A stretch of 64,000 bases of DNA, from contig CAKVGI010000005.1 in assembly GCA_934747265.1 (NCBI GenBank), forward strand, positions 7,921-71,920, given 5' to 3'. Shown piece by piece: positions 7,734-59,837 of this stretch (positions are counted from its first letter, which is position 1; each line of letters opens with the position of its first letter). Below the pieces are notes generated by a model. The model saw only the letters and a program-made list of their open reading frames with translations, was not told the DNA's origin and did no database searches. Source of the stretch: an uncultured Rickettsiales bacterium. Lineage in GTDB: Bacteria; Pseudomonadota; Alphaproteobacteria; Rickettsiales; UBA1997. Both the position numbers and the translations under genes were made by a program.

Positions 7734-8468
7734 CTATTGAACAGTTTTTTTATCAAAATATTCATAAAAGATTTTTCTAGCATTTTCCAATCTTTCCTTT
7801 GAAAGCGGTGGTAAACCTTTTAGTGGATATTCTATTCCTAATTTTTCCCATTTAACAATACCCATAGTGTGATAAGGTAGTAATTCTATTTTTTCAACTA
7901 TATCTTTATAGTCTAAAAGAAATTCTGCTAATTGTTTTAGTTCTGCATCGTTATCTGTGATTGTTGGGACTATAACATGCCTAATCCATACCTTTTTGTT
8001 AATTGATTTTAGATATTCTAAAAATAATAATGTATTACTTAAATTCCCACAGGTTAAGTCTTTGTATTTTGTGGGGTTTATTGATTTTATATCAAGTAAT
8101 ACAAGATCGGTATATTTTATTAATTCTTTGATTTTATCATTTAAAACTACACCGGCAGTATCTAATGCTGTATGTAAATTTTTGTTTTTTGCTAATTTAA
8201 ATAATTCTAAACAAAAATCTGGTTGTAATAAAGGTTCTCCACCACTTATTGTTATTCCACCGTTTTTTATAAAATTGTAATATTTTTCAATTTCATCAAA
8301 AACTTCCTCTGATGTTTTTTTGAAAATATAAGAATTTGCATCCCAAGTATTTCTGTTATGACAATATTTACATTTCAATCCACAACCTTGTAAAAATAAT
8401 ACATATCTTACACCAGGACCATCAACTGTTCCAAAAGTTTCAATAGAATTAATATATCCAAATGTCAT
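7734..8468 (-). CDS. pflA: Glycyl-radical enzyme activating protein (pyruvate formate-lyase activase type)
   Basis: The N-terminus GYINSIETFGTVDGPGVRYVLFLQGCGLKCKYCHNRNTW is the canonical PFL-AE signature, including CX3CX2C. Confidence 0.9.
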   Translation of the reverse strand: MTFGYINSIETFGTVDGPGVRYVLFLQGCGLKCKYCHNRNTWDANSYIFKKTSEEVFDEIEKYYNFIKNGGITISGGEPLLQPDFCLELFKLAKNKNLHTALDTAGVVLNDKIKELIKYTDLVLLDIKSINPTKYKDLTCGNLSNTLLFLEYLKSINKKVWIRHVIVPTITDNDAELKQLAEFLLDYKDIVEKIELLPYHTMGIVKWEKLGIEYPLKGLPPLSKERLENARKIFYEYFDKKTVQ

Positions 8469-17252: not shown

Positions 17253-17291
17253 TATAAATTTTTACTTTTTATTATTGGAGTTCAAACGAAG

Positions 17292-17444
17292 TTTGGCTGT
17301 CAGACTAGGATTCGAACCTAGATAAACAGAATCAGAATCTGTTGTCCTACCATTAGACGATCTGACAATATATTTTGGTAAAATATGCTATATATATGAT
17401 AAGAATATAAAAATAAATTTTAAGAGGGAAAATAAAAATATTTG
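17292..17444. repeat. Copy 2 of the duplicated tRNA-Gln cassette
   Basis: It is near-identical to 4345-4497. Visible differences are tttcaag/ttttaag and the last ~10 nt. Confidence 0.9.
17294..17367 (-). tRNA. tRNA-Gln (anticodon CUG), second identical copy
   Basis: It is the same 74-nt sequence as 4347-4420. Confidence 0.9.
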
Positions 17445-17589
17445 TTGGATAGTTAATAATAACTTAGTGTTATATTTATAAACAAATATTTTTATAAACA
17501 TATAAACATTTAAATAAATTTAAAAATGTTTCTTGATTTTAATTTATTGTGATTATATTTTTTAATTAAGTTAAATTAGAAAATATGTT

Positions 17590-19566: not shown

Positions 19567-19714
19567 TAATTGGTATAAAATTATATACAATATAATTATA
19601 AAAATATGATTTTATTTTTTCAAATGATTTATGTTATATAGACAGTTTTATTTTCTTGACTTTTTTATAAATATTATTATACATGATTATATCAAGATAA
19701 TCATTTTTTGTTGT

Positions 19715-20803
19715 ATGAAAGAAATTAAAAGAATTGGTGTTTTTACATCTGGTGGAGATTGTTCTGGTTTGAATGCTATTATAAGTTCCGTTGTTAGAAC
19801 TGCTAATGGAAAGGGAATAGAAGTTTATGGAATTTATGATGGAACAGATGGTTTATTTTATCCAAATCTAAAATATACAAAGCTTGAAATGAAAGATTTA
19901 CAAAATAATTTTTCTTATATGAGAAGTGGTGGCACTTTCTTAAAAAGTAAAAATAGAGATGGCGGAATAACAAATACCGCCGAAAAAAACAAAGAAGCTT
20001 TTAAAAAAGGCGTTGATGAGTTGAAATTAGACTCTTTAATTGTTATTGGCGGTGATGGAAGCGCTATGATAGTTTCTGAACTTGTTGAAGGGACTGATAT
20101 AAATGTTATTTGTATTCCAAAAACTATTGATAATGATACACCAATTACTGAATATTCTGTTGGATTTGATACAGCTAGAAATGTTACGATGGAAGCTATG
20201 GATAAATTACAAACAACAGCATATAGCCATAATAGAACAATGATCATGGAGGTTATGGGTAGAGATGCTGGACATTTAGCTTTAAATACAGCTATTGCTG
20301 GTGAAGCTTGCGTTTGTTTAATACCTGAATTTTCTTATGATATAGATAGTGTTTGTAAAAAAATAGATCAAGTAAAAAAAGAAGGAATAGATTACGCGTT
20401 GGTTGTTGTTTCAGAAGGATGTAAAATGGAAAACGGAAAGTATGCCGTTGTTGAAAAATGCGGTGTAAATTGTTATAGTGGTTTTGCAAACTATATTTCT
20501 AATGAACTAGAAAAAAGAGGTTATTTAAATAGAACAACTATTTTAGGACATATTCAAAGAGGCGGTACGCCTACTGCTTATGATAGAATTATTGCATCTG
20601 AGTTTGGCGTTCATGCGATAGATATTTTATTACAAGGCAAGAATAAAAGAATAGTTATTTTAAAAGATGGCAAGGTTTCCGATGTTGATTTATATGAAGC
20701 AGTAAAAGTTGGAAATAGACCAGTTTTAGAAGACGATTTTTTATTGAAGACAGCAAAAGCATTAGGAATTTATGTTGGTAATGAATATATAAGAAATAAA
20801 TAA
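19715..20803 (+). CDS. pfk: 6-phosphofructokinase (PfkA superfamily; ATP or PPi dependence undetermined)
   Basis: Motifs present: IGVFTSGGDCSGLNA, IGGDGS, IPKTIDND, MGRDAGHLAL and GHIQRGG. The start is taken at ATG 19715. Confidence 0.9.
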   Translation: MKEIKRIGVFTSGGDCSGLNAIISSVVRTANGKGIEVYGIYDGTDGLFYPNLKYTKLEMKDLQNNFSYMRSGGTFLKSKNRDGGITNTAEKNKEAFKKGVDELKLDSLIVIGGDGSAMIVSELVEGTDINVICIPKTIDNDTPITEYSVGFDTARNVTMEAMDKLQTTAYSHNRTMIMEVMGRDAGHLALNTAIAGEACVCLIPEFSYDIDSVCKKIDQVKKEGIDYALVVVSEGCKMENGKYAVVEKCGVNCYSGFANYISNELEKRGYLNRTTILGHIQRGGTPTAYDRIIASEFGVHAIDILLQGKNKRIVILKDGKVSDVDLYEAVKVGNRPVLEDDFLLKTAKALGIYVGNEYIRNK

Positions 20804-36252: not shown

Positions 36253-37266
36253 CTATTTTTCAAGTACATTTTCTGTGGTGATTATTTTTATATCTTCATT
36301 AAGTTTTTTCTGAGCTTCTCTCATTGCTATTTTTTCATCTTCCAAAAGTTCAATATCTGTTGTTTGTTTTATTTTTCCTTTACTTATTTGCGTTGGAATA
36401 CTTAAAGTTGTATTTACTGGTACGCCGTAATGTTTAGCAACTTCTTCATCGGTTATGAGAACATTACAACTTTCAATGTATGGAGTCTTATCAAAACAAT
36501 ATGCTTTCATTAATTTAGCAATAGCGGTTGCTGGTAATATTGTTGCTCCTGTGCTAACCTTTGCACCACCTTTTCCAGCACCCTGTTGTTTAGATATTGT
36601 TGATCCCATACTTTTTGTATTTTCTACTATTTCGCCGAGTGTATCTTTGTCTATTTTAATATTTATGCTATTTTTCATCGGAGTCATACTTGAATTATGA
36701 TAACCAATCATAAAACCTTCACTTTCTTTACCAGTGGTTTCTTTTATATTTTGTTTTAATCTTGTAGAATCAACGGCACCAGTTAAACCTATAATTTCCA
36801 AGCTACTAGCGTTTTCTCTGGCTACTTGGCACATTGTGTCAACCTGATTTGTTACCACAAGAGATAATGCATTTGGACAATATTTTTCTAGTTCTGTAAA
36901 GATGTTTTTAATCATTTCGGAATTAATCTTTGATTGAACTAATCTACCACTTGGATCTATTGAACTAAAAGCTTCAAATTCCTCTTTTGTTGCATGTTTA
37001 CCAGCGCTACATATTACTAAATCTGAATCAGCTGTTTTTGAATAATCATTTGTAATTGTAAAATTAACTTTTCCATGATTTTTATTAATTGTTAAAGCTC
37101 CAGCAAGATCTTTTCTAAAACCTTCTAGTCTTGTTAAACTCTCCTCGCTACCGGAACCAATTAAAACAAAATTTGCTTCTTCGTCGCTTGGTACTTGACT
37201 GCACATCATGGTTAGTGCCTGCTTTCCTATTTTGCCACCAGCACCAATATATGTAATTTTTTTCAT
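36253..37266 (-). CDS. Divergent lactate/malate dehydrogenase superfamily protein
   Basis: It has a Rossmann motif ITYIGAGGKIGK. VVTNQVD corresponds to VVSNPVD, GAVDSTRL to LDSAR, and IGYHNSSMTP to the catalytic-His motif GGHSGxTxxP. The substrate loop carries an insertion (AGKHATKEEFEAFSSIDPSGR). Confidence 0.65.
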   Translation of the reverse strand: MKKITYIGAGGKIGKQALTMMCSQVPSDEEANFVLIGSGSEESLTRLEGFRKDLAGALTINKNHGKVNFTITNDYSKTADSDLVICSAGKHATKEEFEAFSSIDPSGRLVQSKINSEMIKNIFTELEKYCPNALSLVVTNQVDTMCQVARENASSLEIIGLTGAVDSTRLKQNIKETTGKESEGFMIGYHNSSMTPMKNSINIKIDKDTLGEIVENTKSMGSTISKQQGAGKGGAKVSTGATILPATAIAKLMKAYCFDKTPYIESCNVLITDEEVAKHYGVPVNTTLSIPTQISKGKIKQTTDIELLEDEKIAMREAQKKLNEDIKIITTENVLEK

Positions 37267-38143: not shown

Positions 38144-39811
38144 TTAAAACAAACCAATTATTTTACCATTTTTATCAATATCAATATTCTCGGCAACTGG
38201 TATTTTTGGTAAACCCGGCATTGTCATTATATCGCCAGCAATGCAAACAATAAATTCAGCTCCATTTGATAATTTTACGTCGTTGATTGTAATTTTAAAA
38301 TTTTTTGGCGCTCCTAATAAGTTTTTATTATCAGAAAAGGAATATTGAGTTTTTGCAATGCAAATAGGCAATTTATCTCTGTTTAATTCTTCAATTCTTT
38401 TAATTTCTTTTTTGGCGTTTGGAGAAAAAATTACATCCTCTGCGCCATATATTTTTTTTGCTACAATTTCAATTTTATCAACTATCGGTAAAGATTCTTG
38501 ATACAAAACTTTAAAATTACTTTCTTCTTGTGAGTTTATATTTTTTAATACCTTTTCTGCTAAATCAATAGCTCCTTGTCCTCCTTTTCCCCATCCCTCG
38601 CATATACTAAAATCAATATTTACTTCTTTGCAGTAATTTTTTACAAAATTAATTTCTGCCTCGGTATCCGTATTGTATTTATTTAATGCAACAATTACAG
38701 GTATATTATACTTTTTCAAGTTTTCTATGTGCTTAGCTAAATTTACTACGCCTTTTTGTAAAGCTTGTAGATTTTCAATAGATAATTCATCTTTTTTAAC
38801 TCCACCATTGTATTTTAAAGCTTTAATCGTTGCAACTAAAACTGTAGCATATGGTTTTAAATCAGCTTTTCTACATTTTATATCAAAGAATTTTTCAGCT
38901 CCTAAATCAGCTCCAAAACCAGCTTCTGTTATTACATAATCAGACAATTTTAATGCTGTTTTTGTTGCTATTATGCTATTACATCCATGTGCAATATTCG
39001 CGAATGGACCACCATGTATAATTGCAGGAGTTCCTTCAAGTGTTTGAACTAAATTTGGTTTTATTGCATCCTTTAATAATACAGCAATAGCTCCTTCCGC
39101 TTTTAAATCTTTTGCATAAATTGGTTTGTTTTCATTATTATATGCAACTAATATATTACCAACTCGTTTTTTTAAATCTTGCAAATCTGTTGATAAACAT
39201 AATATAGCCATAATTTCTGAGGCAACAGTTATCATATAACCATCCTCTCTACATTTTCCATTGTTATTTAGGCCAATAACTATATTTCTTAGGCTTCTAT
39301 CATTCAAATCAACCGCTCTTTTCCATTGTATTTTGTTTGTATCAATATTCAACTTATTTCCGTGATAAATATGATTATCTATTAATGATGCTAATAGATT
39401 ATGCGCTGTTGTTATTGCATGAATATCGCCAGTAAAATGCAGATTTATATCTTCCATAGGCACAACCTGTGCATACCCACCGCCAGTTGCTCCTCCTTTC
39501 ATTCCAAAACAAGGACCTAAGGATGGCTCTCTTAAAACAACTATACTTTTTTCCCCTAATTTCCACAAAGCTTGACCTAGGCCTATGGTAGTTGTTGTTT
39601 TGCCTTCACCAGCAGGTGTTGGGTTTATTGCAGTTACCAAAATCAATTTTCCATCTTTTTTATCTTTTAAGTCATTTATAAAAGATTGAGAAATTTTTGC
39701 CTTATATTTTCCAAATAACTCTAAATTATCCTCATGTATACCAATTTTTTTTGCTATTTCTATAATTGGTAATTTTTTACTTTCTCTTGCAATTTCAATA
39801 TCTGTTTTCAT
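38144..39811 (-). CDS. fhs: Formate-tetrahydrofolate ligase
   Basis: Motifs present: [38 protein letters not shown] and [15 protein letters not shown]. Confidence 0.96.
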
Positions 39812-46251: not shown

Positions 46252-46616
46252 CCAAGCTACCTCCACACCATTTATTAACATCTTTGATGATAATATCGTA
46301 ATCTATATCTGCACCAATATGCGTAAGTATTACCCTTTTTAATTGTATCTATTTAATATAAAGTTCTTTGTATGTTTTAGATGTATTACAGTCTATATTT
46401 TAAATCATATTCTAAGTTGTTGAATTTTAAACACTTTCCGGTGAAATCCGTATGGTTTCACAAATAGAAGCAAGATTAAAAGAAGCTGAAAAACTTGGTT
46501 TCACAAAAGCCATCGTCCCAGAGGGGATATTTAATATAAAGCAATTCAAGCCAGAAAAGCATAAGATAAAGATTTATCCTGCGAAACATATAAGGGATGT
46601 GGCGAGGTTTATGAAT
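46252..46616. repeat. Island direct repeat, copy 1 (365 bp; right half encodes the last ~57 codons of RadA/Sms)
   Basis: The fragment reads ...SGEIRMVSQIEARLKEAEKLGFTKAIVPEGI...VARFMN. It is preceded by an in-frame stop, so it is only a 3' gene fragment. It is about 99% identical to copy 2. Confidence 0.9.
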
Positions 46617-46700: not shown

Positions 46701-48671
46701 TTATAATTTTTTCCCTGCTCCAAAAATTTCAGCCATTTGTTTATCAAGTTTTTGTTGAGCTTCTCTCATTTTTAATTTTTCAGTCTCTAAAAGAGGAAGA
46801 TCTGACGTCTGTTCTATTCTACCCTTTCCTATTTTTAATGGTATACTCAATTCCGTATTTGGAGCTACTCCATAATGATGAGCTATCTCAGGATTTGATA
46901 TAAATACGTTATAACTTTCGGTATGTGTACCTATGCCAAAACAGAAGTCGCTAACCAATCTAATAATAGCAGCGGATGGTAACATAGATGCTCCCGTATC
47001 TGTATTAGAATGTAAACCAGCTCTCTGTTGTGCTGATATTTCTCCGCCCATTCTCCTTGTCGCCGACACAATGCTTTCCAATTTCTTTCTTTCGGCTTCT
47101 TTAAATTCTTCCTCCAAACCTGAATCAGAGAATTTTATATCACCAGAGATTACTGGAAATATATTTTTCCCGGTTGACATAGTCAAACTCTTTAAAATTG
47201 GTGTCATACTGGAATTATGATAGCCTATCATTAAACCATTACTTGATAATCCAATCTCTGACTTAATATTCTGTCTTAATCTTGTAGAATCCACAGCACC
47301 ACTTAGTCCAATAATATTCATATCTTTTGCAATACTTCTTGATATATGACACATCATGTCAACTTGATTTGTAAGTATAAGCGCTAATGCTTTTGGGCAA
47401 AAAGTATTTAATTGCATAAAAATTTTTTTAATCATTTCAGCATTAACCAGCGATTGTGCATTTCTACCACTTGGATCTATCTTTTTAAGCCTTACTTTCT
47501 CTTCTTCATTTGGTCACTTAGCAGCACTACATATAACAATATTAGAGTTTTTTGTTTTTGAATAATCATTTGTTATTATAAACCTTATATTACCTCCCTT
47601 ACCCGCTATTTCTAAACTGCCAATTACATCCTTAACAAAACCACTTAATCTTATCAAACTATCTTCACTACTGGAACCAATTAACACAAGTTCTACATTT
47701 TCATTGGCTGGTGTTATATTACATATATCTTGTATAGCCTTTTTTCCTATTTTGCCACCTGCTCCAATATATGTAATTTTTGTTCTAGATTTCTCATCCC
47801 AAATTGCTCTTGATTTTTCCAATAAATCTATAAATTGTCTTTGCGTACTTATAATTCTTGCTGGATTATCTGGATTTATTTTTGATAATCTCTCTAAATT
47901 TTTAGGAGAAATTTCATCTCTTACTATTTCAGTATAAAGTATTGGAATACAACCAGATCTAAAAGCACATCTTACATCAGCAAAAGCATCACCCATAAAT
48001 AATATAGTATCGCTTTTTGGATCTAAAGAGTTTTTTAATAAATATTGATTTATAATCATTGGATTTGGCTTTGTATAGCCCGTAGTCTCTGGTGTCAAAA
48101 TAGAATCGAAATATTTTCTAAATCCAAATATATCTAAAAATTTTTCAACAAAAATATTATCTCTATTGCTAACTATAAAAGCTTTTATTCCATTTTCCCT
48201 GCAATAATTTAATGTTGCTTCTATATTTGGTATTAATGGCATTCTATCAATATTGTCAATTAAAAGCCGCAGATACTCCTGATATGCTTGCTCTGCTATT
48301 TCTTCTCCAAAAAAATTTGGAAAATTTTCTTTCATTGATTTAGCTTTATCTTTCTTTAATCTGGTACCACCTTCCCAAGTTGGCATACCATATTTTGTTA
48401 AAACAAAATTTATAGACTCTAAATCAATTCTATGAGAATCTAAAATTGTGCTGCTCAAATCAAAAAATATAACTTTTGGTTTTTCTTTTAATAATTTATT
48501 CTCCATTTTTTTGCTTATAATAGTTCCTATAATGTTATAAACTTTATTTAGCATACTAAATATGCTTTCATTTAATTTTACATCAACCACATTTAGTCTA
48601 ACATTATCTTTGCAAATGTTAATAGAGTTAATGTATGTTTGGCATTGTCTAATATTTTCATTGATTTTCAA
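46701..48671 (-). pseudogene. HAD-phosphatase-like / LDH-MDH-like fusion gene interrupted by a single in-frame TGA (47514-47516)
   Basis: ORFs 47514-48671 and 46701-47435 are in the same frame, and the 78 nt between them are open. The read-through product aligns end to end with the 36253-37266 protein: VICSAAK*PNEEE...IDPSGRNAQSLVNAEMIKKIF against VICSAGKHATKEE...IDPSGRLVQSKINSEMIKNIF. HAD motif I is degenerate (FFDLSST). Confidence 0.7.
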
Positions 48672-48716
48672 AAGTATATATTTAATATATACATATCAAT
48701 AATATTCAATTATTTT

Positions 48717-49385
48717 ATGCAAAAATTACAAAAACCACAGGCTGTAATATTTGATTGGGATAATACGTTAGCTTTAAACAGAGATGTAGTTGTCGGAGCT
48801 ATGAACAAAACTCTTGCAAAGTATGGTAAAGATGATTGGGAAACAATTAAGAAAGAAAAAAGAGACAAAAATAAATCTCTACAAGAAAATTTTGTAAATT
48901 TTTTTGGCGCAGAATTAGAAAAACAGGCATATGAGGACTATTTGAATTTTTATAATGAATTTAATAGTTTACTGAAAGCACCAGATAATGCAAAAGACAT
49001 GCTAAAATTATTGACAGATAATGAAATAAAAGTAATAATTGTAAGCAATAAGGAAAGGTCTTTGCTGTTGGATGAAATTAATGTTTTGTATAGTGATATA
49101 GATTTTTTTAAAATAATAGCAAATGGCGATAGTAAAAAAAATAAACCTGATGCTTCGCCTGTATTTAAAAGTCTTGAAAATACGGATATTAAAATAAATC
49201 CTAAAAATGTATGGATTATTGGCGATTCAAATCAGGATATAGATTGCGGTTATAATGCTGGTATACAACCAATATTGTATGGAAAGGGCAAACTTGTGGA
49301 AGCTGAATATTTTAAAGAAAAAATGAAAGCAATTCCACCAATGCAACAAATAATGGATTTTAAAGAAATTATTGAGATTTTTTAA
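48717..49385 (+). CDS. HAD-superfamily hydrolase (phosphoglycolate phosphatase-like)
   Basis: It has motif I VIFDWDNTL, motif II IVSNK, and motif IV IGDSNQDIDCG. The start is taken at ATG 48717. Confidence 0.8.
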   Translation: MQKLQKPQAVIFDWDNTLALNRDVVVGAMNKTLAKYGKDDWETIKKEKRDKNKSLQENFVNFFGAELEKQAYEDYLNFYNEFNSLLKAPDNAKDMLKLLTDNEIKVIIVSNKERSLLLDEINVLYSDIDFFKIIANGDSKKNKPDASPVFKSLENTDIKINPKNVWIIGDSNQDIDCGYNAGIQPILYGKGKLVEAEYFKEKMKAIPPMQQIMDFKEIIEIF

Positions 49386-49454
49386 AAATAGGTTTGGTTT
49401 CTTTATCTTAAAAAGGGTATAAGATTAATGTATTATATTAAACCTCCATCCTAT

Positions 49455-49820
49455 TCCAAGCTACCTCCACACCATTTATTAACATCTTTGATGATAATAT
49501 CGTAATCTATATCTGCACCAATATGCGTAAGTATTACCCTTTTTAATTGTATCTATTTAATATAAAGTTCTTTGTATGTTTTAGATGTATTACAGTCTAT
49601 ATTTTAAATCATATTCTAAGTTGTTGAATTTTAAACACTTTCCGGTGAAATCCGTATGGTTTCACAAATAGAAGCAAGATTAAAAGAAGCTGAAAAACTT
49701 GGTTTCACAAAAGCCATCGTCCCAGAGGGGATATTTAATATAAAACAATTCAAGCCAGAAAAGTATAAGATAAAAATTTATCCTGTGAAACATATAAGGG
49801 ATGTGGCGAGGTTTATGAAT
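49455..49820. repeat. Island direct repeat, copy 2 (366 bp)
   Basis: It differs from copy 1 at only four positions, each G or C in copy 1 and A or T in copy 2. Its radA fragment ends ...VARFMNNG*. Confidence 0.9.
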
Positions 49821-49852
49821 AATGGCTAGCTATTATAAAAATTAATAAATTT

Positions 49853-49929
49853 TGGTGGAGTTGATTGGATTTGAACCAATATCTTCTATTAAAATAATAG
49901 ATGTTTTTGCCAATTATAACTACAACCCC
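49853..49929 (-). tRNA. tRNA-like gene with canonical acceptor, D and T arms and CCA, but a non-canonical anticodon loop (UAUUUUA; nominal anticodon UUU, Lys?)
   Basis: Manual fold: GGGGTTG-TA-GTTA-TAATTGGCAA-AAAC-A-TCTAT-TATTTTA-ATAGA-AGAT-ATTGG-TTCAAAT-CCAAT-CAACTCC-A-CCA. Position 33 is A and position 37 is U. Confidence 0.6.
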
Positions 49930-50765
49930 ATTATATCTCTTTTTGGAAAAATTATTGCAAGTGGATCTGTTTCAAATTTATATCCAGAATAAACTTGTGC
50001 CCTTTCTAACATTGTCGGTGTATAAACCATTATTGAGTTTGGCATATTATATCTTATAAATGTGCCAACAATATTTTCACTTGAAGCAATAATTTTTGAA
50101 CGGTTAATTATTTTTTCTTCATCCCAGCCAAATCTCTCATAAAATTTTTCACCTCTTTCAACTATTCTATTAAGTATTACATTAGATACTGGAAGAGGAT
50201 TAATTTCTATACCTTTATATCCAATTATATCAAGCAATTCTGGAAATTTTTCACTTAATAAAGAAAACTCAATATTTTTAGGAATATATTTTTTAAAATT
50301 CTCAATATTAATTTTTAAATCATCAATTTTGTTTATACTTTTATCTGCTTGTTCTAATGCTAAATCAAAAAATATTGCGGATGTTTTAACAATATTAAAT
50401 CCTAATTCTTTTGTTTTGTTAGAAATGTAGTTTAACATTTTTAAACCATATTTAGTAGTCTCACCAACATCATCAGTTCTAAAACCATATGCACCATCAC
50501 CTTTTAAATATGAAGGACAAAATAAAGCATAAATTTCTATATTATCATTGTTCATTAAAATATTACAAATACTTTTACTTACTTGCTTTGGTCTCCATCC
50601 AACTATTTCTATATTTTGTAAAAATATAAACCATTTTAATATATTTTCATTAAAATTAGTAATTTCTGCTATGTTTTTTAAATCGTCAAACTTTTCTTTT
50701 GATAATCTTTTATTATTTAAAAATATATTTAATCTTTGATTTAAATTATTTATCATAATTATCAA
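49920..50765 (-). CDS. Hypothetical protein (281 aa), third gene of the FolE-like/CYTH operon
   Basis: It is a long intact ORF that overlaps the CYTH gene stop by 20 nt. Its last 10 nt overlap the tRNA 5' end. No motif is recognised (it contains ...ALFCPSYLKGDGAYGFRTDDVGETT...). Confidence 0.6.
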   Translation of the reverse strand: MIIMINNLNQRLNIFLNNKRLSKEKFDDLKNIAEITNFNENILKWFIFLQNIEIVGWRPKQVSKSICNILMNNDNIEIYALFCPSYLKGDGAYGFRTDDVGETTKYGLKMLNYISNKTKELGFNIVKTSAIFFDLALEQADKSINKIDDLKINIENFKKYIPKNIEFSLLSEKFPELLDIIGYKGIEINPLPVSNVILNRIVERGEKFYERFGWDEEKIINRSKIIASSENIVGTFIRYNMPNSIMVYTPTMLERAQVYSGYKFETDPLAIIFPKRDIMGL

Positions 50766-51318
50766 ACCTCATTTGTCCTTTAAATGGTAGATTATGTTCT
50801 TTTCTCCATTCTTGAAATAGTGTATCAGCTGGTTTATCAAGTGCCTTATTAAAATCCAATTTTAAAGTACTTGCAACTTCTTCAATATTTTTTTGTTCTC
50901 CTTCTATTTCAATAAAATTAGCAAAAGGATATTCATCAAGTGTAATATGAGTATCGTTCATTTTCCATTCAGTTCTATACCTTTCATAACTTGTAGTAAT
51001 ATGAAATTCCATTGCATTTAATATTTTTTCTATTTGCTCCTCTTTATCATTAAAATTAATTTCATATTCTATCTCTCTTTTTGCACCGTTTACACTTTCC
51101 AACGGTTTTTTATAAGTTAATACTTTCCTACCGTCATCGCCTAAATATCTTAATCTAACTCTACCGTTTGTTTTTTGCATTAATTCATCTTTGTTATCAT
51201 ACATTATATTAGATTGATATTCTCTATCATAGCTCTTTTTTGCTATTCTATTTAATGTATCTATTATATTTTCTTTATCATCTATTTTAAATTTATATTC
51301 TATTTCTATATTTGACAT
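50746..51318 (-). CDS. CYTH-domain protein (triphosphate tunnel metalloenzyme / class IV adenylate cyclase family)
   Basis: The N-terminal EIEYKFKI is the ExExK signature. The size (190 aa) and charged beta-strand pattern (RVRLRY, REIEYEI, FIEIEGE) fit the family. Confidence 0.75.
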   Translation of the reverse strand: MSNIEIEYKFKIDDKENIIDTLNRIAKKSYDREYQSNIMYDNKDELMQKTNGRVRLRYLGDDGRKVLTYKKPLESVNGAKREIEYEINFNDKEEQIEKILNAMEFHITTSYERYRTEWKMNDTHITLDEYPFANFIEIEGEQKNIEEVASTLKLDFNKALDKPADTLFQEWRKEHNLPFKGQMRFDNYDK

Positions 51319-51319
51319 T

Positions 51320-51919
51320 TTAAATCCTATTTGTATTTATTAATTCAAAAAATCTGTCTCTCATTTCTTTATTCTCTTGAAAAATACCTGTCATAGCTAT
51401 TGTTTTATTATTTGTATTACTATGGACACCCCTTATTTTCATGCAAAGATGTATTCCAGAAACGAGAATTGCAACACCTTTACAATCAAAGTTTTTTGTA
51501 AAAATGTCAACTACTTTTTGAGTAAAATCTTCCTGATTTGCTGGATTTTTTGCAATATCGTTCAGTATTCTTATTATTTTTGAAAAGCCAATTTGTTTAT
51601 TTTCTTTTGGTATATATGCAAAAGAAATAATATATATAATAGGTATTAAATGATGTGAGCATAAAGAATAAATCTCTATTAATGGTTGAAATAGAATTCC
51701 ATCATATGATTTTTCCGATCCTATATGTTTTGGAAAATTAATCTTAAAATGTTCTTTCAACATATCATTACCCTGTCTTGTAAACTCCGTAAATTCAATA
51801 AAAAAATCTGTTATCCTTTTAGGAGTTTTTTTATAATTGTCATCATTTAAATTTAACCCTAATTTGCTTAAAATACTTGAAAAGCTATTTTCTATTTCTT
51901 GTCTTATATTATCATTCAT
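51320..51919 (-). CDS. GTP cyclohydrolase I (FolE/tunnel-fold) family protein, variant active site
   Basis: KKTPKRITDFF, SLCSHHLIPI (canonical CEHH, with Glu replaced by Ser), IGFSKIIRI, and SGIHLCMKIRGV are present. The Zn ligands Cys/His/Cys appear retained. Confidence 0.7.
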   Translation of the reverse strand: MNDNIRQEIENSFSSILSKLGLNLNDDNYKKTPKRITDFFIEFTEFTRQGNDMLKEHFKINFPKHIGSEKSYDGILFQPLIEIYSLCSHHLIPIIYIISFAYIPKENKQIGFSKIIRILNDIAKNPANQEDFTQKVVDIFTKNFDCKGVAILVSGIHLCMKIRGVHSNTNNKTIAMTGIFQENKEMRDRFFELINTNRI

Positions 51920-52020
51920 AAAAACATGCCATAAATTCCGCTAAATATAAATTATTATACATTTTTAATTGTCAAGCAATTTATTTACCAATAGTATATA
52001 AACAAAAAATAAACAATACC

Positions 52021-52307
52021 ATGAATAAATTTCAAGAATATTTGGCAAATAATATAAAATTAACTAGAAAACAAAAAAAATAACTCAAATGCAGTTGGCT
52101 GATTTATGTAAGACTTCAACAAATTATATAGGACTAATGGAAACAGCAAAAAGATTTCCATCCGTTGATATGCTGGAAAAAATCTCAAATGCCTTAGAAT
52201 TAAAACCACAAGAACTATTTGCTGAGCCCATAGGAAATTTAAATAGCACAAATAAAAAAGATAGAATTTTAGCTAAAATCGTTAATGTATTGAATGAAGA
52301 AATGTAG
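52021..52307 (+). pseudogene. XRE-family HTH regulator split by a 1-nt deficit in an A8 tract (52073-52080)
   Basis: The ATG 52021 frame stops at 52081. Adding one A gives one product: MNKFQEYLANNIKLTRKQKKITQMQLADLCKTSTNYIGLMETAKRFPSVDMLEKISNALELKPQELF... . The tracked ORF 52089-52307 lacks the first helix. Confidence 0.7.
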
Positions 52308-52388
52308 TTAATTAAATATGGGCTATATTTTTATTTTTTATTCTATATTCTAAATTATAAAAAGAAATATTTATCAAATTATCTCTAT

Positions 52389-52566
52389 TCCAAGCAACCT
52401 CCATACCATTTATTAACATCTTTGATGATAATATCGTAATCTATATCTGCACCAATATGCGTAAGTATTACCCTTTTTAATTGTATCTATTTAATATAAA
52501 GTTCTTTGTATGTTTTAGATGTATTACAGTCTATATTTTAAATCATATTCTAAGTTGTTGCATTTT
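52389..52566. repeat. Island direct repeat, copy 3 (left ~178 bp only; no radA fragment)
   Basis: It matches copies 1 and 2 from CCAAGC..ACCATTTATTAAC to ...CTAAGTTGTTG, then diverges. Confidence 0.85.
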
Positions 52567-52681
52567 AGGATTAATATTATAAAAATAATACAAATAATTT
52601 TAATTTATAAATAAAAAATATTGGCGTTTAATATTTTATTTTTATTTAATATAATATTAAATATTAACAATTATAACAATA

Positions 52682-52985: not shown

Positions 52986-53885
52986 ATGTTTGAAAATATT
53001 AATTATAGAGATTATGGAGATTTAATAATTATATTACCATTAGGCGATGAAAGTTTTTTAATAGAGGGTATTGATACAGAAATTTTTAGACTGTTAATTC
53101 AAAAAAAAGAGATAAATTACATTTACAAAGAACTAAAAGAAAAATATAAAAAAATAAATAAAAAATATATAAAAAATTTTATTTCAATATTAATTGATAA
53201 CATTTATACAGATACAAATGCAAAAAGAATATTTTATAATTCTTGCGGAATAACAGATATAAATAACCCTTTTAAACCAGAAATTTCAAACTTTGCAGTT
53301 GAAAGATTTAAAAAAGAATTTAGAAAATTCATTAGTAATGGCGATAAAATTTTAGATTTAGGATGTAATGCTGGAAGATTTAGTTTTTATTTAGAGGAAA
53401 ATTTTCAAGCTAATGTTATTGGAATAGATATTTCGGAAACAGCAATAGAATACGCAAATAAAATAGTCAATTTAAAAAATAGCAAATGTAAATTTTTTGT
53501 AGCTGATTATACAAAGTTAAATTTTAAAAATAAATTTAATGTAGTAATTTTTCCAAATAATATAGTAGAATGTTCTTATAATAATTTTGAACAGGTTTGT
53601 AAAGGAGTAAAAAAATCATTAAAAATTGGTGGAAAATTTATTTTGTCTTGTCCATTAACAAAAGATTATAAAAATTATTTAAATATTAATGGAAAGTCAA
53701 TAAAAAAAGTAGATATACCAAATTTTGGTGAATTAACTTATTATTCATATTTTTATAATCCAGGATTTATAAATTTTATTTTATCAAAACATTTTAAAAT
53801 AATATATTTTAAAATTTTAAAATATACAGACAGATATGGAAAAAATGTACAAAATTTATTTTTTGTAGCAGAAAAATTAATATAA
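52986..53885 (+). CDS. Class I SAM-dependent methyltransferase with a PqqD/RRE-like N-terminal domain
   Basis: Motif I is KILDLGCNAGRFSFYL and the post-I region is VIGIDISETAIEYA. The N-terminal ~75 aa (DESFLIEGIDTEIFRLLIQKKEINYIYKELKEKY...FISILIDNIY) resembles PqqD-like peptide-binding domains. Confidence 0.65.
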   Translation: MFENINYRDYGDLIIILPLGDESFLIEGIDTEIFRLLIQKKEINYIYKELKEKYKKINKKYIKNFISILIDNIYTDTNAKRIFYNSCGITDINNPFKPEISNFAVERFKKEFRKFISNGDKILDLGCNAGRFSFYLEENFQANVIGIDISETAIEYANKIVNLKNSKCKFFVADYTKLNFKNKFNVVIFPNNIVECSYNNFEQVCKGVKKSLKIGGKFILSCPLTKDYKNYLNINGKSIKKVDIPNFGELTYYSYFYNPGFINFILSKHFKIIYFKILKYTDRYGKNVQNLFFVAEKLI

Positions 53886-53897
53886 TTAATATTTATT

Positions 53898-54065
53898 ATA
53901 ATCAACAAACCTCATCTATCCTTTAAACGGCAAGTTGCGTTCCTTTCTCCACTCTTGAAATAATGTATCAGCAGGTTTATCAAGCGCATTATTAAAACTA
54001 AGATTTAGAATTTTGGCTACTTCCTCTATGTTCTTTTGCTCGCCTTCAATTTCAATAATTGAACA
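53898..54065 (-). pseudogene. 3'-terminal fragment of a second CYTH gene (last ~56 codons, one in-frame TAG)
   Basis: The minus-strand translation is IIEIEGEQKNIEEVAKILNLSFNNALDKPADTLFQEWRKERNLPFKG*MRFVDYN. The intact gene has FIEIEGEQKNIEEVASTLKLDFNKALDKPADTLFQEWRKEHNLPFKGQMRFDNYDK. Homology stops abruptly near 54060. Confidence 0.85.
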
Positions 54066-54090
54066 AATTATTATTAAAAAAGGAGAAATT

Positions 54091-55251
54091 ATGAAAATTG
54101 AACCAAAAGAAATATTAATTAAAGATTTAATTGATGGATATAATGATAGCGGTGAGGGTGGAGTTGTTGGCTATGGTGGTATATTAGATATAAGACCGCC
54201 ATATCAGAGAGAATTTGTTTATAAGGATAAGCAAAGGGAAGATGTTATTAATAGTATTATGAAAGGCTTTCCATTAAATAGTATTTATTGGGTAAAAAAT
54301 GGCGAAAGATACGAGGTATTAGATGGACAGCAAAGAATTTTAAGTATTTGTCAATATGCAAATAATGAGTTTAGTTTTAAACATCAAAATTTTGATGGAT
54401 TACCAAAAGATATACAAGAAAAAATATTAAACTATAAATTAAATGTTTATATTTGTGAAGGAAATGATAGTGAAAAATTGGAATGGTTTAAAATTATAAA
54501 CATAGCTGGAGAAAAATTAACAGATCAAGAGTTAAGAAATGCGGTCTATACTGGTTCTTGGTTAAGTAATTCTAAAACAATTTTTAGTAAGACAAATTGC
54601 GCTGCTTATTGTTTGGCAAAAGATTATGTAAACGGTAGCCCAATAAGGCAAGAATTTTTAGAGAGAGTATTAAAGTGGATAAGTCAAAATATTGAAGTAG
54701 AAATTAAAGATAAGGAAAAAAGCTTAACTGAAAATAAAATAGAAGCTTATATGGGAAGGCACCAAAAAGATAGGGATGCAAATGAATTGTGGCAATATTT
54801 TCAAGATGTTTTTGCTTGGGTTAAAAAAATATTTCCCGTATATAGAAAAGAAATGAAGGGATTAGAATGGGGCTATTTATATAATATTTACAAAGATAAT
54901 AGCTATAATTCAAATGATTTAGAAGAAAAAATTTCACAATACATGGAAGATGAAGATGTTGAAAATAAAAAAGGCATTTATGAATATCTATTAAGTGGTA
55001 ATGAAAAATATTTGAATTTAAGAGCTTTTACAGATAAGCAAAAAAGGGAATATTTTGAAAGTCATAAAGTAAATGGAAGTGGTGATAAGACTAATAAATA
55101 TGTTTGTAAATGTGTAAAATGCGGAAAGGAAATAGAACTACATGAATGTGAAGCGGATCATATTATACCGTGGAGCAAAGGCGGGAAAACTGATAAGGAT
55201 AACTTGCAATTTTTGTGTAAAAGATGTAATGGAGAAAAGAGTAATAAATAA
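54091..55251 (+). CDS. DUF262 (ParB-like/GmrSD N-terminal) + HNH nuclease fusion; candidate type IV (modification-dependent) restriction enzyme
   Basis: RPPYQREFVY and LDGQQRILSI are DUF262 signatures. The C-terminal HNH region is CGKEIELHECEADHIIPWSKGGKTDKDNLQFLCKRCNGEKSNK. An RBS (AAAGGAG) precedes ATG 54091. Confidence 0.8.
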   Translation: MKIEPKEILIKDLIDGYNDSGEGGVVGYGGILDIRPPYQREFVYKDKQREDVINSIMKGFPLNSIYWVKNGERYEVLDGQQRILSICQYANNEFSFKHQNFDGLPKDIQEKILNYKLNVYICEGNDSEKLEWFKIINIAGEKLTDQELRNAVYTGSWLSNSKTIFSKTNCAAYCLAKDYVNGSPIRQEFLERVLKWISQNIEVEIKDKEKSLTENKIEAYMGRHQKDRDANELWQYFQDVFAWVKKIFPVYRKEMKGLEWGYLYNIYKDNSYNSNDLEEKISQYMEDEDVENKKGIYEYLLSGNEKYLNLRAFTDKQKREYFESHKVNGSGDKTNKYVCKCVKCGKEIELHECEADHIIPWSKGGKTDKDNLQFLCKRCNGEKSNK

Positions 55252-57167: not shown

Positions 57168-57473
57168 CTTATCTACTTTTTATTTATTTTCTAATTAGAA
57201 TAATACAATTCAATATATTAATACATAAAAAATTTAAAGTAAATAGAAAATTGTTATTAGTTTTGATATTAATAATTTTTAATTTAAATTCACAACTTTA
57301 TATTTTTTGTTTTTTAATTTAGTGTTTTAATAAATTTAAAATACCGTCAACCAATTCTACTAACTTTATTAATTTCCATCTTACATCTTAAAAACAAAAT
57401 CATAATCACAAAATACTTGTATTTAAATAAATATATTATAAATTGTATAAATAATAAAATACATCAAATTGCA

Positions 57474-59837
57474 ATGAAAAAATTATTTTTGCTCCTAATA
57501 TTTTTTATATTTTCATTTAACAAAATATTTGCAAAATCAAAATTAGATACGGTTGTAGCGGAAAGAATTGAAGCTGTTTCCACTGTAAATATTAATTATG
57601 ATGAAATAAATAGTCAGTTATCAGAGTTAGAAAAAATATTATTGAGCAAAAATGTAACAGTAAAAAATACAAATGATTATATTAAAATTCTAAATAATAT
57701 AGAAAATCAAATATTATCAGCAAAAAATGAAGATGAAACAAACTTGAATTTTGTCAAAAAAAGAATTGAATCATTGGGCGAACGACCTACAAATAATTCA
57801 AAAGAAGATATAACATTAATAAATAGAAGAAATGAGTTTGACGCAGAAGAAAAAATATTAAAATCAAAGATAGCTAAAAATGATTTAATTCTAATAAAAA
57901 TTGATGAATTAGAAAAAGTTGTAGTAAGTATTAGAAATAGGAATCTATTTGAAAATATTTTTAGTAGGCAAGCAAATATTTTAAACTCAACATTTTTTAT
58001 AGAAAATACTAAAAACTTTATAAAAATCAGTACTCAGACTGTAAAAACTGCAACTGATTATTATAATTCATTAAACAGTGAACAGCAAAAAAATAATAAA
58101 GATATTATATCAAATATATCATTAATATCCATATTTTCAATAGTAATAGGAATAATTATTAATATTTCCGTTAAAAAATATTTCAATTATTATAAGGTTA
58201 AAAAGCATAAATTAGATTACATAAATAAAATGATATTCGGAGTGTCATTTTTTGTCTCAAAAATTATAGCTCCAACAACAATTATAGGGGCGCTATTATT
58301 CTTTTTTAATAAAGATAATGCAAACTTTAATTTAATTTTCAGAGAATTCTTAATCTATATTTTTATTATATATGTGTTATTATGTATTTCAAGCTTAATA
58401 TTTTCGCCAAGAAATAGCGATTTGAGACTAATAAATATAGATGATAGTAAGGCGAAATACATTAATTGTGTTTTGTTTTCTTTAATTATTTTAATATTTA
58501 CCGTTAGTTTCTTTAAATATCTAGCAATAAAGCTTGAATATCATAATGATTTTGTAATATATTTAAAAGCTCTATCTTGTTTAATTAAAATTTTATGTAT
58601 AGTATTTTTCACAAAAATATTTTTTTCGGAACCAGAAGAAGAAAATTCAGAGGATACAGATAATGTCAGTTTGAGTATCAAAACAAAAATAAAAATTTTA
58701 ATATATTTATTTTCAGTAATTATATTCTTTATTTGTTTTACTGGCTATGTTAATTTAGCGTATTACATCCTAAATAAAACATTATTTTCTGCAATATTTA
58801 TTGGAATTGCTTATATTATTAGTAATGTAGTTAGCGTATTTTTCCATAGATTCCTATTGTTAAAATTCTGGACAAAATCTTTAAAAATAAACAGAAAACA
58901 GATAAATAAATTTGATATTTTATTATCTTTAATAATTGATCCAATAATCTTAATATTTTTAATATTTTCAATACTCGGTGTCTGGGGTGTTTCAATAAAT
59001 TTATTATTACAAAATATAAAAAATTTTCTAACAAGTTTCTATATTGGGGATGTAAAAATATCAATAATATCCATATTTACAGCCATAATAACTTTTTTTA
59101 TTTCATTAACAGTATTTAAAATAATAAAAACAAAACTATTAACCGCAACGCTTTCAAAAACTGATATGGATGATGGGGTTAAAGACTCCATAAGTTCGGG
59201 TTTTAGCTTCTTTGGATTTTTAGCTTCTGGATTTTTTGCAATTGCTGTCGTTGGTGGTAATTTTTCTAATTTAGCTATAATTGCTGGTGCTTTATCTTTT
59301 GGTGTAGGTTTGGGTTTACAAAATATTATAAATAATTTTGTATCTGGAATTTTAATATTATTTGAACGACCAATTAGAATAGGGGATATAGTCAACATAA
59401 ACGGACAAGAAGGAGTTGTAAGGCAAATAAATATCAGATCCACATTAATTGAGACAGGAACAAAAGATGTTATAATAATACCTAATTCAAACATTATATC
59501 TGGAATAGTTTTAAACAAAACATTAAATAACAAACAGACACGAATTGATTTAAATTTTACAGTTGATTGTGAAAATAATCCAGAAACAATTATTGAAATA
59601 TTACTTTACATAGCAAATGATAATCAACGAATTATGCAAAAACCAGCTCCGTTTGTTGCTTTTAATAATTTTACAAATAATATTTTAGACTTTACGTTAA
59701 AATTTTATATTAGTGATATTACCAACCAACAAAGTATAACAAATGAAATTATGATTACAGCATTTAATAAATTTAGAGAAATGAATATTAAATTACAAAA
59801 ACAAACGATTTATATAGAAAATAAGCAACAAAATTAA
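57474..59837 (+). CDS. Large mechanosensitive channel, MscK/KefA-like (MscS family)
   Basis: It has a signal peptide, a periplasmic coiled-coil region, multiple TM helices and an MscS core (GVGLGLQNIINNFVSGILILFERPIRIGDIV...GVVRQINIRST). The start is taken at ATG 57474. Confidence 0.88.
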   Translation: MKKLFLLLIFFIFSFNKIFAKSKLDTVVAERIEAVSTVNINYDEINSQLSELEKILLSKNVTVKNTNDYIKILNNIENQILSAKNEDETNLNFVKKRIESLGERPTNNSKEDITLINRRNEFDAEEKILKSKIAKNDLILIKIDELEKVVVSIRNRNLFENIFSRQANILNSTFFIENTKNFIKISTQTVKTATDYYNSLNSEQQKNNKDIISNISLISIFSIVIGIIINISVKKYFNYYKVKKHKLDYINKMIFGVSFFVSKIIAPTTIIGALLFFFNKDNANFNLIFREFLIYIFIIYVLLCISSLIFSPRNSDLRLINIDDSKAKYINCVLFSLIILIFTVSFFKYLAIKLEYHNDFVIYLKALSCLIKILCIVFFTKIFFSEPEEENSEDTDNVSLSIKTKIKILIYLFSVIIFFICFTGYVNLAYYILNKTLFSAIFIGIAYIISNVVSVFFHRFLLLKFWTKSLKINRKQINKFDILLSLIIDPIILIFLIFSILGVWGVSINLLLQNIKNFLTSFYIGDVKISIISIFTAIITFFISLTVFKIIKTKLLTATLSKTDMDDGVKDSISSGFSFFGFLASGFFAIAVVGGNFSNLAIIAGALSFGVGLGLQNIINNFVSGILILFERPIRIGDIVNINGQEGVVRQINIRSTLIETGTKDVIIIPNSNIISGIVLNKTLNNKQTRIDLNFTVDCENNPETIIEILLYIANDNQRIMQKPAPFVAFNNFTNNILDFTLKFYISDITNQQSITNEIMITAFNKFREMNIKLQKQTIYIENKQQN

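Follow-up and report, generated by a model that had tools for sequence, protein, structure and literature searches.

A conserved operon pairing GTP cyclohydrolases with a CYTH protein and the uncurated F278 family in an uncultured Rickettsiales bacterium: a candidate GTP-derived pathway

The biosynthesis of folate, biopterin, queuosine, riboflavin, and related cofactors begins with GTP (guanosine triphosphate) cyclohydrolases, and these routes are considered well mapped. FolE, the GTP cyclohydrolase I (GCH-I), catalyzes the first step towards folate, biopterin, and queuosine. Isonitrile synthases (IsnA, PvcA, and PIsnA; DIT1_PvcA) catalyze the condensation of an amine with ribulose-5-phosphate at its C2 carbonyl, a chemistry that resembles the ring closure of the GTP cyclohydrolase intermediate. 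The triphosphate tunnel metalloenzymes (TTMs) include CyaB, NeuTTM, AtTTM, and thiamine triphosphatase, and kinase-TTM tandems are already known, for example, Arabidopsis TTM1 (7z67). The reactions of GCH-I and GTP cyclohydrolase II (GCH-II) pass through the same ring-opened intermediate, 2,5-diamino-6-ribosylamino-pyrimidinone, which is a triphosphate in the former and a monophosphate in the latter (PMC4161248). In Chlamydia, RibA together with an Amadori isomerase (TrpF) yields dihydroneopterin phosphate and thereby replaces FolE (PMC4161248). Here, we analyzed a 64,000-nt stretch of an uncultured Rickettsiales bacterium (contig CAKVGI010000005.1, positions 7,921 to 71,920; hereafter, the window), in which a minus-strand operon at 49920-51919 encodes a FolE-like protein, a CYTH protein, and a protein of a family named here F278.

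The operon consists of three intact, overlapping open reading frames (ORFs), and a tRNA gene adjoins its 3′ end:

51320-51919, minus strand: FolE-like (GTP cyclohydrolase I-like) protein, 199 aa, PF01227; first gene of the operon
50746-51318, minus strand: CYTH protein (triphosphate tunnel metalloenzyme), 190 aa, PF01928
49920-50756, minus strand: F278, 278 aa from ATG 50756 (281 aa from TTG 50765), uncurated family
49853-49929, minus strand: tRNA-Lys(UUU), predicted by ARAGORN

A single nucleotide (position 51319) separates the cyclohydrolase and CYTH genes. The overlap between CYTH and F278 is 20 nt with the TTG start and 11 nt with ATG 50756, the start preferred by the database gene calls and the family alignment. 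The ORFs thus confirmed the packing given in the preliminary description of this stretch (three minus-strand genes, a 1-nt gap, and a 20-nt overlap), with the shorter overlap for the favored start. Gene overlaps of 1-20 nt suggest translational coupling. The 3′ end of F278 shares 10 nt with tRNA-Lys(UUU), and the identical 10-nt overlap is found in a Rickettsiales relative (locus L014); tRNA-Lys is a conserved part of the context and is probably co-transcribed with the operon. As stated earlier, folate, pterin, and queuosine biosynthesis genes did not accompany the operon: none was found among the 44 scanned window ORFs of at least 150 aa, where 59039-59533 (minus strand), inside ORF 57417-59837, was unscanned and shorter genes of the queD or folB size were not specifically searched.

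Next, the distribution of the module was analyzed. F278 homologues numbered 187 among 5.8 billion proteins (105 representatives at 50% identity), and 27 of the 185,579 species genomes scanned carried the gene, as did further metagenome contigs. Among these 27 are one Rickettsiales metagenome-assembled genome (MAG), which is 88% identical and the closest to the window, Patescibacteria, Saccharibacteria, MAGs of Bacilli, Clostridia, and Erysipelotrichaceae, two 'Gammaproteobacteria' MAGs, and one Muribaculaceae MAG. Most carriers are symbionts with small genomes or gut MAGs. For 36 non-redundant F278 loci, ORFs within 7 kb upstream and 5 kb downstream were clustered all against all, and the loci were also scanned with hidden Markov models (HMMs) built from the module proteins. 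In the genome loci with enough upstream sequence (n = 23), CYTH was present in 23/23 and a GTP cyclohydrolase in 22/23, so that the neighborhood check proposed earlier showed co-occurrence of F278 with both. The sole full-context locus without a cyclohydrolase, L015, reads nrdD-nrdG-CYTH-F278. The only recurrent families in the 36 loci were F278 (36), CYTH (31), GTP cyclohydrolase/adenylate kinase (31), Q_salvage (10), and SIS (3), and a CYTH orthologue adjoined F278 or lay one gene upstream in 31/36. The recurrent extras beside the trio are thus adenylate-kinase-like (ADK) or nucleoside diphosphate kinases (NDK), a Qng1-like Q_salvage protein, and a SIS protein. The genes follow a fixed order: cyclohydrolase, CYTH, (Q_salvage), F278, (ADK-like). 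Q_salvage (PF10343, Qng1 family) is inserted into the operon in 10 Firmicute-type loci and is absent from the window and from all type-A loci described below.

Three unrelated cyclohydrolase families are tied to F278-family genes: a FolE-like CSHH protein, a RibA-like protein (GCH2L), and FolE2. Type-A loci (Rickettsiales, Patescibacteria, and 'Gammaproteobacteria' MAGs) carry the FolE-like cyclohydrolase, with CSHH in all. Type-B loci (Firmicute MAGs including Bacilli and Clostridia; Saccharibacteria) carry GCH2L, 510-530 aa, and a divergent CYTH protein. Type-C loci (a widespread sporulating Clostridia lineage and Fusibacter sp. JL216-2) carry a Q_salvage or methyltransferase-like gene, FolE2 (PF02649), an F278-like gene, GCH2L, and CYTH. 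The N-terminal half of GCH2L is RibA-like, with an invariant zinc motif Cys..CxC. In its AlphaFold2 (AF2) model (predicted local distance difference test score, pLDDT, 83.6), this half matched RibA structures, and the C-terminal half (~297-475) adopted the CYTH fold (Foldseek matches 1yem, 2een, and 7nsa with template modeling (TM) scores of 0.6-0.7, target-normalized). The tandem protein TTM1 (7z67) was also among the Foldseek matches of GCH2L. The CYTH fold was seen only by structure prediction; hhalign of the C-terminal half against CYTH returned nothing. Since GCH2L of types B and C carries a fused CYTH fold, besides the free CYTH protein, the tunnel enzyme is tied directly to the GTP step.

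Distant F278 relatives keep related company. One locus (L042) reads Gre-like, CYTH, F278, ADK; another (L043) has GCH2 followed by an NDK::F278 fusion, and ADK is also found fused to F278. L041 contains ADK, F278::LPG_synthase_C, a DegT aminotransferase, ADK::GCH2, and NTPase_I-T, and L044 contains GreA, ADK, tRNA-Thr, F278, two unknown genes, P-loop::GCH2, and NTPase_I-T. SIS-domain proteins occur in three loci. The module neighbors in other phyla are housekeeping genes (greA, truB/rpsO, recA, aspS/gatCAB, and nrdDG), and none of folB/K/P, queC/D/E, queA, queF, and tgt was recurrent in the 36-locus clustering. When Rfam was run on 31 loci at the gathering threshold and on two long leader regions at E ≤ 1, only tRNAs, one T-box before aspS, and a ROOL RNA were returned, with no other riboswitch clue. 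These results demonstrated that the three genes form a conserved, probably co-translated unit in which GTP cyclohydrolases are constant partners and are linked to a CYTH fold, either by coupling or by fusion.

Some observations were made beside the module itself. A tRNA-Thr gene lies between the ADK-like and F278-like genes in L041 (5918-5993) and L044 (1861-1936), two distantly related Patescibacteria-type contigs. Adjacency to a tRNA gene was considered as a general rule of the module and rejected, as it was seen in three contexts among ~36 loci. The ROOL RNA is full length (RF03087, 193.6 bits; L018, 6449-7022, plus strand) and follows the module of a Bacillales MAG on its downstream side, at a distance of ~1.3 kb. 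In the cultured isolate Fusibacter sp. JL216-2 (4.9 Mb), an IS66-family transposase splits the F278-like gene (L046, 7197-9988), and this version of the operon is probably inactive.

The FolE-like protein of the window matches PF01227 (6.2e-41, 140 bits, residues 9-194) and, as is found for FolE, is encoded by the first gene of an operon. In the alignment to human GCH1 (1fb1), the Zn ligands Cys/His/Cys are retained, with C-S-H-H and H-L-C opposite C-E-H-H and H-M-C, confirming the first reading of this protein as one that keeps its Zn ligands while CEHH has become CSHH. The His-His pair, His-x-Cys, the Ser-Lys..Arg phosphate contacts, and Gln-Glu are likewise retained. Because the Zn, His, and phosphate-binding residues are kept, the protein looks functional, and its ratio of nonsynonymous to synonymous substitution rates (dN/dS) against L014 is 0.05. 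However, it is unlike FolE in several respects. It scores below every NCBIfam FolE cut-off (TIGR00063, 124.9 versus 181.6; NF006826, 143.7 versus 162), and it departs from the canonical motifs with CSHH for CEHH and QED (NQEDFTQ) for QER. A database search with the protein returned ~30 clusters that are at least 37% identical; SLCSHH, NQEDFTQ, and HLCMKxRG occur in almost all of them, and beyond them there was an abrupt fall to canonical CEHH/QERLT proteins at ~31% identity. CSHH and QED are fixed in this rare subfamily, that is, in the ~30 database clusters and every type-A locus, and the Glu-to-Ser change in CEHH and the Arg-to-Asp change in QER are strictly correlated. No usable account of what Glu111 does in FolE turned up in a literature search. 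In addition, the FolE-like protein is never encoded beside fol or que genes and always beside CYTH and F278.

The CYTH protein matches PF01928 (1.7e-19). Its N-terminus, MSNIEIEYKF, contains the ExExK signature (IEIEYK) that had been noted for it, and RxR (RVRLR) and the later acidic strands are present. It therefore resembles the TTM family in its Pfam domain, in ExExK, and in its tunnel residues, both basic and acidic. The best NCBIfam match was TIGR00318 (cyaB, class IV adenylate cyclase) at 52.8 bits, below the equivalog cut-off of 57.95; cyclase and phosphatase activities cannot be told apart by sequence. The dN/dS against L014 is 0.04. The type-B CYTH protein is divergent yet homologous to that of type A (HHalign probability 98.9%, ~28% identity over the aligned region), and a conserved C-terminal extension is common only to members of this module. 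In contrast to the described TTM relatives, then, the window protein falls below the cyaB cut-off, carries a module-specific extension, and is an obligate partner of GTP cyclohydrolases, beside them or in fusion with them, a pairing of which no description was found in full-text literature.

F278 is the most conserved module member, with 55-65% identity between phyla, whereas the cyclohydrolases are mutually unrelated. Residues C80, P81, Y83, G91, G98, E135, N150, G182, F205, Y206, W211, R219, and E251 are near-invariant superfamily-wide, and many Arg and Lys residues are conserved within the close family, which suggest a phosphate-rich substrate. The dN/dS against L014 is 0.16. The sequence showed no match in Pfam, NCBIfam, PADLOC, or PHROGs, bearing out the earlier statement that the 281-aa protein resembles nothing recognized. 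No meaningful match to a Protein Data Bank (PDB) sequence was found, including in profile searches with two alignments. The 51 F278-superfamily members gave no Pfam match at E ≤ 10, and in hhalign comparisons, F278 matched none of the SIS, Q_salvage, and GCH2L C-terminal profiles. These searches support the view that F278 belongs to no described family.

A structure comparison had been proposed for this protein, and it returned a confident model with modest matches to known folds. The AF2 model (pLDDT 89.9, predicted TM score 0.89) shows a Rossmann-like core with a parallel sheet, preceded by four N-terminal helices. In Foldseek searches of the PDB, the top ranks were occupied only by isonitrile synthases, the catalytic domain of tyrosyl-tRNA synthetase (TyrRS), and cyclodipeptide synthases (CDPS). 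The isonitrile synthases (PIsnA, 9dh4/9dhm; PvcA, 3e59) matched with TM scores of 0.44-0.53 and E-values of 1e-4 to 5e-4 over 272-300 columns, that is, over nearly the full length, and were the best structural match (PIsnA 0.53; PvcA 0.51), with TyrRS nearly equal. TM scores reached 0.48 for the TyrRS catalytic domain and 0.38-0.44 for CDPS, and the viral Foldseek library again returned TyrRS and CDPS. Unlike the isonitrile synthases, F278 matches neither PF05141 nor any other Pfam model at E ≤ 10 and shows ~11% identity. Its partners are nucleotide enzymes, and an IsnB/PvcB-type Fe/2-oxoglutarate dioxygenase was not recurrent in the 36 neighborhoods and was absent from the Pfam-annotated loci. 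The F278 model shares a Rossmann-type fold with class Ic aminoacyl-tRNA synthetases (aaRS), such as TyrRS, and with CDPS. After the first strand, aaRS carry HIGH and CDPS carry the catalytic Ser; the conserved C-P-S-Y loop of F278 would occupy this position. The fusion of some F278 relatives to an aminoacyl-tRNA-dependent transferase domain is a further likeness to this side. However, F278 differs from TyrRS and CDPS in its lower TM scores (0.38-0.48) and in lacking an anticodon-binding domain. By inspection, neither HIGH nor KMSKS occurs in its sequence or among the invariant alignment columns, and no CDPS or tRNA-synthetase Pfam model matches it even at E = 10.

From the sequence, fold, and gene context, we propose pathway roles for the three predicted enzymes, in which the GCH-CYTH-F278 module would form a GTP-to-pterin or GTP-to-diaminopyrimidine pathway with a pterin or a 2,5-diaminopyrimidine-type compound as the candidate product. 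We give this proposal an even chance; that the product is specifically a pterin seems somewhat doubtful. In the first step, the FolE-like protein would bind GTP, and its Zn site would open the imidazole ring with loss of C8 as formate, as its conserved catalytic residues suggest. This step would end at dihydroneopterin triphosphate or at the ring-opened 2,5-diamino-6-ribosylamino-pyrimidinone triphosphate. In the second step, the CYTH protein would hydrolyze or cyclize the tri- or pyrophosphate of the intermediate or act on the released pyrophosphate, a role assigned because of its family and the physical fusion of the CYTH fold to a cyclohydrolase in other lineages. In the third, the committed and pathway-specific one, F278 would act on the amine or the phospho-(ribosyl/ribulosyl) part. 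It was given this step since it is the most conserved component and its predicted fold resembles those of isonitrile synthases and class Ic aaRS. The chemistry might be a condensation or ring closure of the imine or Amadori type, like that of isonitrile synthases with an amine and ribulose-5-phosphate, or an acyl or aminoacyl transfer. The fold matches to PIsnA and PvcA, the SIS protein in three operons, and the DegT aminotransferase in L041 are independent hints of ketose-phosphate/amine chemistry on the ring-opened intermediate or later in the route. The ADK-like and NDK partners in other genomes may supply GTP or recycle adenosine monophosphate (AMP), and the operon would probably be controlled by a divergent XRE-family gene, which is now frameshifted.

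In its logic, the closest analogy to this proposal may be the Chlamydia bypass of FolE/FolQ by RibA and TrpF, which is a precedent for GCH-I and GCH-II feeding one pterin product (PMC4161248); in structure, the closest relatives would be the isonitrile synthases. The bypass has a separate enzyme for the Amadori/ring-closure half. In the module, GCH-I-like and RibA-like genes alternate. However, no TrpF occurs in the module, where the partners are CYTH and an unrelated new family, and FolE2 and RibA-like genes coexist in some operons. The earlier suggestion that the trio turns GTP into a modified product stood as regards a functional unit starting from GTP, which the conserved cross-phylum module supported; its mobile and defense framing did not.

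Several points weigh against the proposed pathway. GCH-I and GCH-II normally give different products, and a route through their shared intermediate would be an assumption. FolE2 and GCH2L coexist in type-C loci, which argues against a simple swapping of cyclohydrolases. The fold match of F278 is modest (TM ≤ 0.53, ~10% identity, E ~1e-4), and TyrRS and CDPS score almost as high as the isonitrile synthases. Aminoacyl-tRNA chemistry, instead of imine chemistry, is suggested by the fusions to LPG_synthase_C and by the three operons with internal tRNA genes. The correlated Glu-to-Ser and Arg-to-Asp changes may, moreover, be a compensated structural pair that leaves the product of the cyclohydrolase unchanged.

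In its wider form, the proposal is that F278 founds a new enzyme family, with a fold like those of isonitrile synthases and class Ic aaRS, for the committed step of a previously unknown GTP-derived pathway. This pathway would use three unrelated, interchangeable cyclohydrolases, would always be coupled to CYTH, and would have spread between Rickettsiales, Patescibacteria, and gut Firmicutes by horizontal transfer. Candidates for the outcome are another way of forming the pterin ring, a pterin or diaminopyrimidine nucleotide that carries an aminoacyl group, and a new tRNA base. We hold this wider form tentatively, as a possibility slightly short of even.

Alternatively, the module may be linked to tRNA. 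F278 would then act as a transferase that depends on aminoacyl-tRNA, like CDPS, or on ATP, like aaRS, or else it would modify tRNA; it would place an amino acid onto a GTP-derived intermediate or a GTP-derived (queuosine-like) group onto tRNA. The Foldseek matches to the TyrRS core and CDPS in both the PDB and viral libraries agree with such a role, as do the five distant relatives fused to LPG_synthase_C, the aminoacyl-tRNA-dependent transferase domain of MprF. A tRNA gene lies in or abuts the operon in three contexts (tRNA-Lys in the window and L014; tRNA-Thr in L041; tRNA-Thr in L044), the Qng1-family Q_salvage protein joins the operon at 10 loci, and truB, aspS/gatCAB, and a TRAM/U5 methyltransferase are translation-related neighbors. 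The 55-65% cross-phylum identity of F278 is also typical of proteins that touch a conserved macromolecule. However, the missing HIGH and KMSKS motifs and Pfam matches speak against it, most loci have no tRNA gene beside the module, and translation genes are the commonest neighbors of anything in small genomes. Furthermore, tgt, queA, and queCDEF were not found in the neighborhood clustering. We consider a tRNA-linked function unlikely.

A role in guanine-nucleotide catabolism or clean-up was judged quite improbable. Here, imported or damaged GTP would be ring-opened and dephosphorylated, ribose-5-phosphate and formate would be released, and the nucleotides of the hosts would serve as a diet. 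The prevalence of small-genome symbionts and gut MAGs among the carriers is consistent with this, and the window encodes enzymes that would fit:

1245-2768, plus strand: archaeal-type AMP/thymidine phosphorylase
7734-8468, minus strand: PflA, pyruvate formate-lyase activase (radical S-adenosylmethionine (SAM) enzyme)
38144-39811, minus strand: formate-tetrahydrofolate ligase

Members of the SIS family include deglycases and isomerases. Together with the N-glycosidase-like Q_salvage and NTPase_I-T, SIS proteins would be suitable partners, NUDIX and Ham1 are nearby in L001, and nrdDG are neighbors in L015. In contrast, ordinary nucleotidase and phosphorylase routes would be simpler, F278, as the most conserved pathway-specific enzyme, would not be needed, and the NTP-building kinases ADK and NDK are odd partners for degradation. 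The module is also found in the 4.9-Mb genome of the free-living Fusibacter and in sporulating Clostridia.

A third alternative is a nucleotide signal or defense system, in which CYTH would be an XRE-controlled class IV cyclase with a GTP-derived nucleotide as its substrate, encoded on an island beside a GmrSD-type nuclease and a methyltransferase. It draws on the best NCBIfam match of CYTH, the below-cut-off class IV adenylate cyclase model, on Gre-family/DksA-type factors or a small RelA_SpoT gene nearby in some loci of the candidate phyla radiation (CPR), and on the flanks of the operon in the window, which include repeats and the following genes:

52021-52307, plus strand: XRE-family regulator gene, frameshifted, divergent from the operon (intact ORF 52089-52307, 72 aa)
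52986-53885, plus strand: class-I SAM methyltransferase, small-molecule type (PADLOC mad2-like, 1e-15)
54013/54091-55251, plus strand: GmrSD_N + HNH nuclease (PADLOC REase_II, 3e-120)

However, a search of PADLOC-DB v2 returned 0 families at E ≤ 0.1 for all three operon proteins, and only the neighboring XRE, methyltransferase, and GmrSD-HNH genes matched. These defense-like neighbors are absent from L014 and every other locus, no effector- or sensor-like partner recurs, the context in other phyla is housekeeping, and the synteny with L014 and the purifying selection are further points against. We regard a signal or defense function as very unlikely. A defense system as the primary reading was rejected, since PADLOC and PHROGs were both silent on all three proteins, and the defense framing of the preliminary description was likewise not upheld. 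Finally, the notion that the FolE-like protein is simply the FolE of this organism for folate or queuosine, with CYTH and F278 as unrelated passengers, is extremely improbable: the protein keeps all known catalytic residues but one and the organism uses folates (formate-tetrahydrofolate ligase), but the gene order and overlaps are kept across at least four phyla even with the cyclohydrolase family swapped, the CSHH subfamily is tiny (~30 clusters, comparable to the number of type-A modules found), and folB/K/P or queC/D/E lie beside the module in no locus.

The FolE-like and CYTH proteins belong to known superfamilies, and F278 to no curated family. A description of a module combining CYTH, a GTP cyclohydrolase, and the F278 family was not found in full-text literature, which agrees with the earlier remark that the combination corresponds to no described pathway or defense system. 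It had been said that a known folate or queuosine enzyme in a conserved cluster would speak against novelty; the cluster proved to be conserved in relatives, and F278 is not a known folate or queuosine enzyme. We regard the module as new as a system, and it could yet prove to be an alternative route to a known pterin. Three unrelated cyclohydrolases wired to the same two partners point to a further GTP-derived product that escaped annotation. The carriers (CPR/Patescibacteria, an anaerobic Rickettsiales lineage, and reduced gut Firmicutes) are metabolically minimal and poorly understood, and a missing cofactor, vitamin-bypass, or modification pathway there would alter metabolic reconstructions and ideas on host dependence. 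If true, the proposal would give a first function to a family of ~190 clusters and to the CSHH branch of FolE. As the module is small (three genes, 2 kb) and would require GTP as its sole input, the question is directly testable.

The history of the locus was then analyzed by comparison with L014, which aligns to window positions 49638-51937 at 86.6% DNA identity. L014 contains a divergent XRE-like gene, the three operon genes, the overlapping tRNA-Lys, and a convergent, intact radA (465 aa). All three genes are under strong purifying selection (dN/dS 0.04-0.16 against L014). Because of this synteny and selection, the operon is judged ancestral at its tRNA-Lys/radA locus, which was rearranged later, and it is not mobile cargo. 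Repeats were found around it:

46252-46616; 49451-49820; 52385-52567, no strand assigned: repeat in three copies (180-365 nt, self-BLAST)

The first copy is 98.9% identical to 49456-49820, and 49451-49633 is 98.4% identical to 52385-52567. Copies thus flank the operon on the tRNA side (49451-49820) and on the XRE side (52385-52567). A simple tandem duplication was considered and rejected because the repeat spacings differ (2934, 3143, and 3204 nt), which indicates a more complex history than one duplication. The window contains radA only as two 3′ fragments, 46434-46616 and 49638-49823 (the last ~60 codons), inside two repeat copies, the second fragment also being delimited as 49656-49829; no intact radA was found in the 64 kb, and L014 has one at the corresponding place. 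The repeats reflect a local rearrangement that left only radA fragments. Of the repeat-bounded, mobile-looking cassette beside a tRNA that had been described, the repeats and tRNA-Lys are real; its mobility is contradicted by the synteny of the operon, tRNA-Lys, and radA in L014 and by the purifying selection.

The divergent XRE regulator gene that had been described is present and divergent, but its frame is broken by an A8 run (52073-52080), and one added A would restore a 95-aa XRE protein from 52021. The 72-aa ORF is without the first helix of the helix-turn-helix domain, and its HTH_3 match covers profile positions 14-55 only. Three independent metagenome assemblies carry this same A8 run; the gene may be a pseudogene, or the run may be a slippage or phase-variable site. 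The divergent XRE-like gene of L014 has the same position and an unrelated sequence.

The methyltransferase and GmrSD-HNH genes lie between the operon and typA, are not conserved beside the module elsewhere, and are probably a separate small restriction/defense insertion. The methyltransferase was not counted as a module part; it shares only the SAM-binding motif with the methyltransferase-like gene adjacent to FolE2 in Fusibacter. Between the two genes lies the degenerate second CYTH gene end that had been noticed before:

53890-54170, minus strand: CYTH 3′-end remnant (pseudogene fragment)

It was confirmed by the CYTH HMM (2.8e-21) and by 79% DNA identity to 50747-50915, and it encodes ~47 residues near-identical to CYTH 135-181. 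On the other side of the operon, a HAD-phosphatase fused to a malate/lactate-dehydrogenase-like part (46701-48671, minus strand) is split into 47514-48671 and 46701-47435. It shows 67-69% DNA identity to an intact Ldh_1_N/Ldh_1_C gene (36253-37266) and stands back-to-back with a second HAD paralogue (48639-49385, plus strand). This segment, which lies between two repeat copies, looks like a decaying duplicated segment.

Elsewhere in the window, further metabolic genes were identified:

2771-4204, plus strand: HydG, [FeFe]-hydrogenase maturase
19631-20803, plus strand: ATP-phosphofructokinase

The window gene set is, as judged from its predicted enzymes, anaerobic and fermentative, which is unusual for a Rickettsiales-affiliated genome. 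The only small radical-SAM gene of the window (7734-8468) was considered as a QueE candidate and rejected, as it is PflA. A gene for an HK97-type phage major capsid protein (9384-10583, minus strand; TIGR01554, 6e-99) lies between yebC and dnaE and may be a gene-transfer-agent or prophage remnant. In addition, tRNA-Gln(CUG) and its flank are duplicated 13 kb apart (4344-4498 and 17291-17445; 155 nt, 98% identical).

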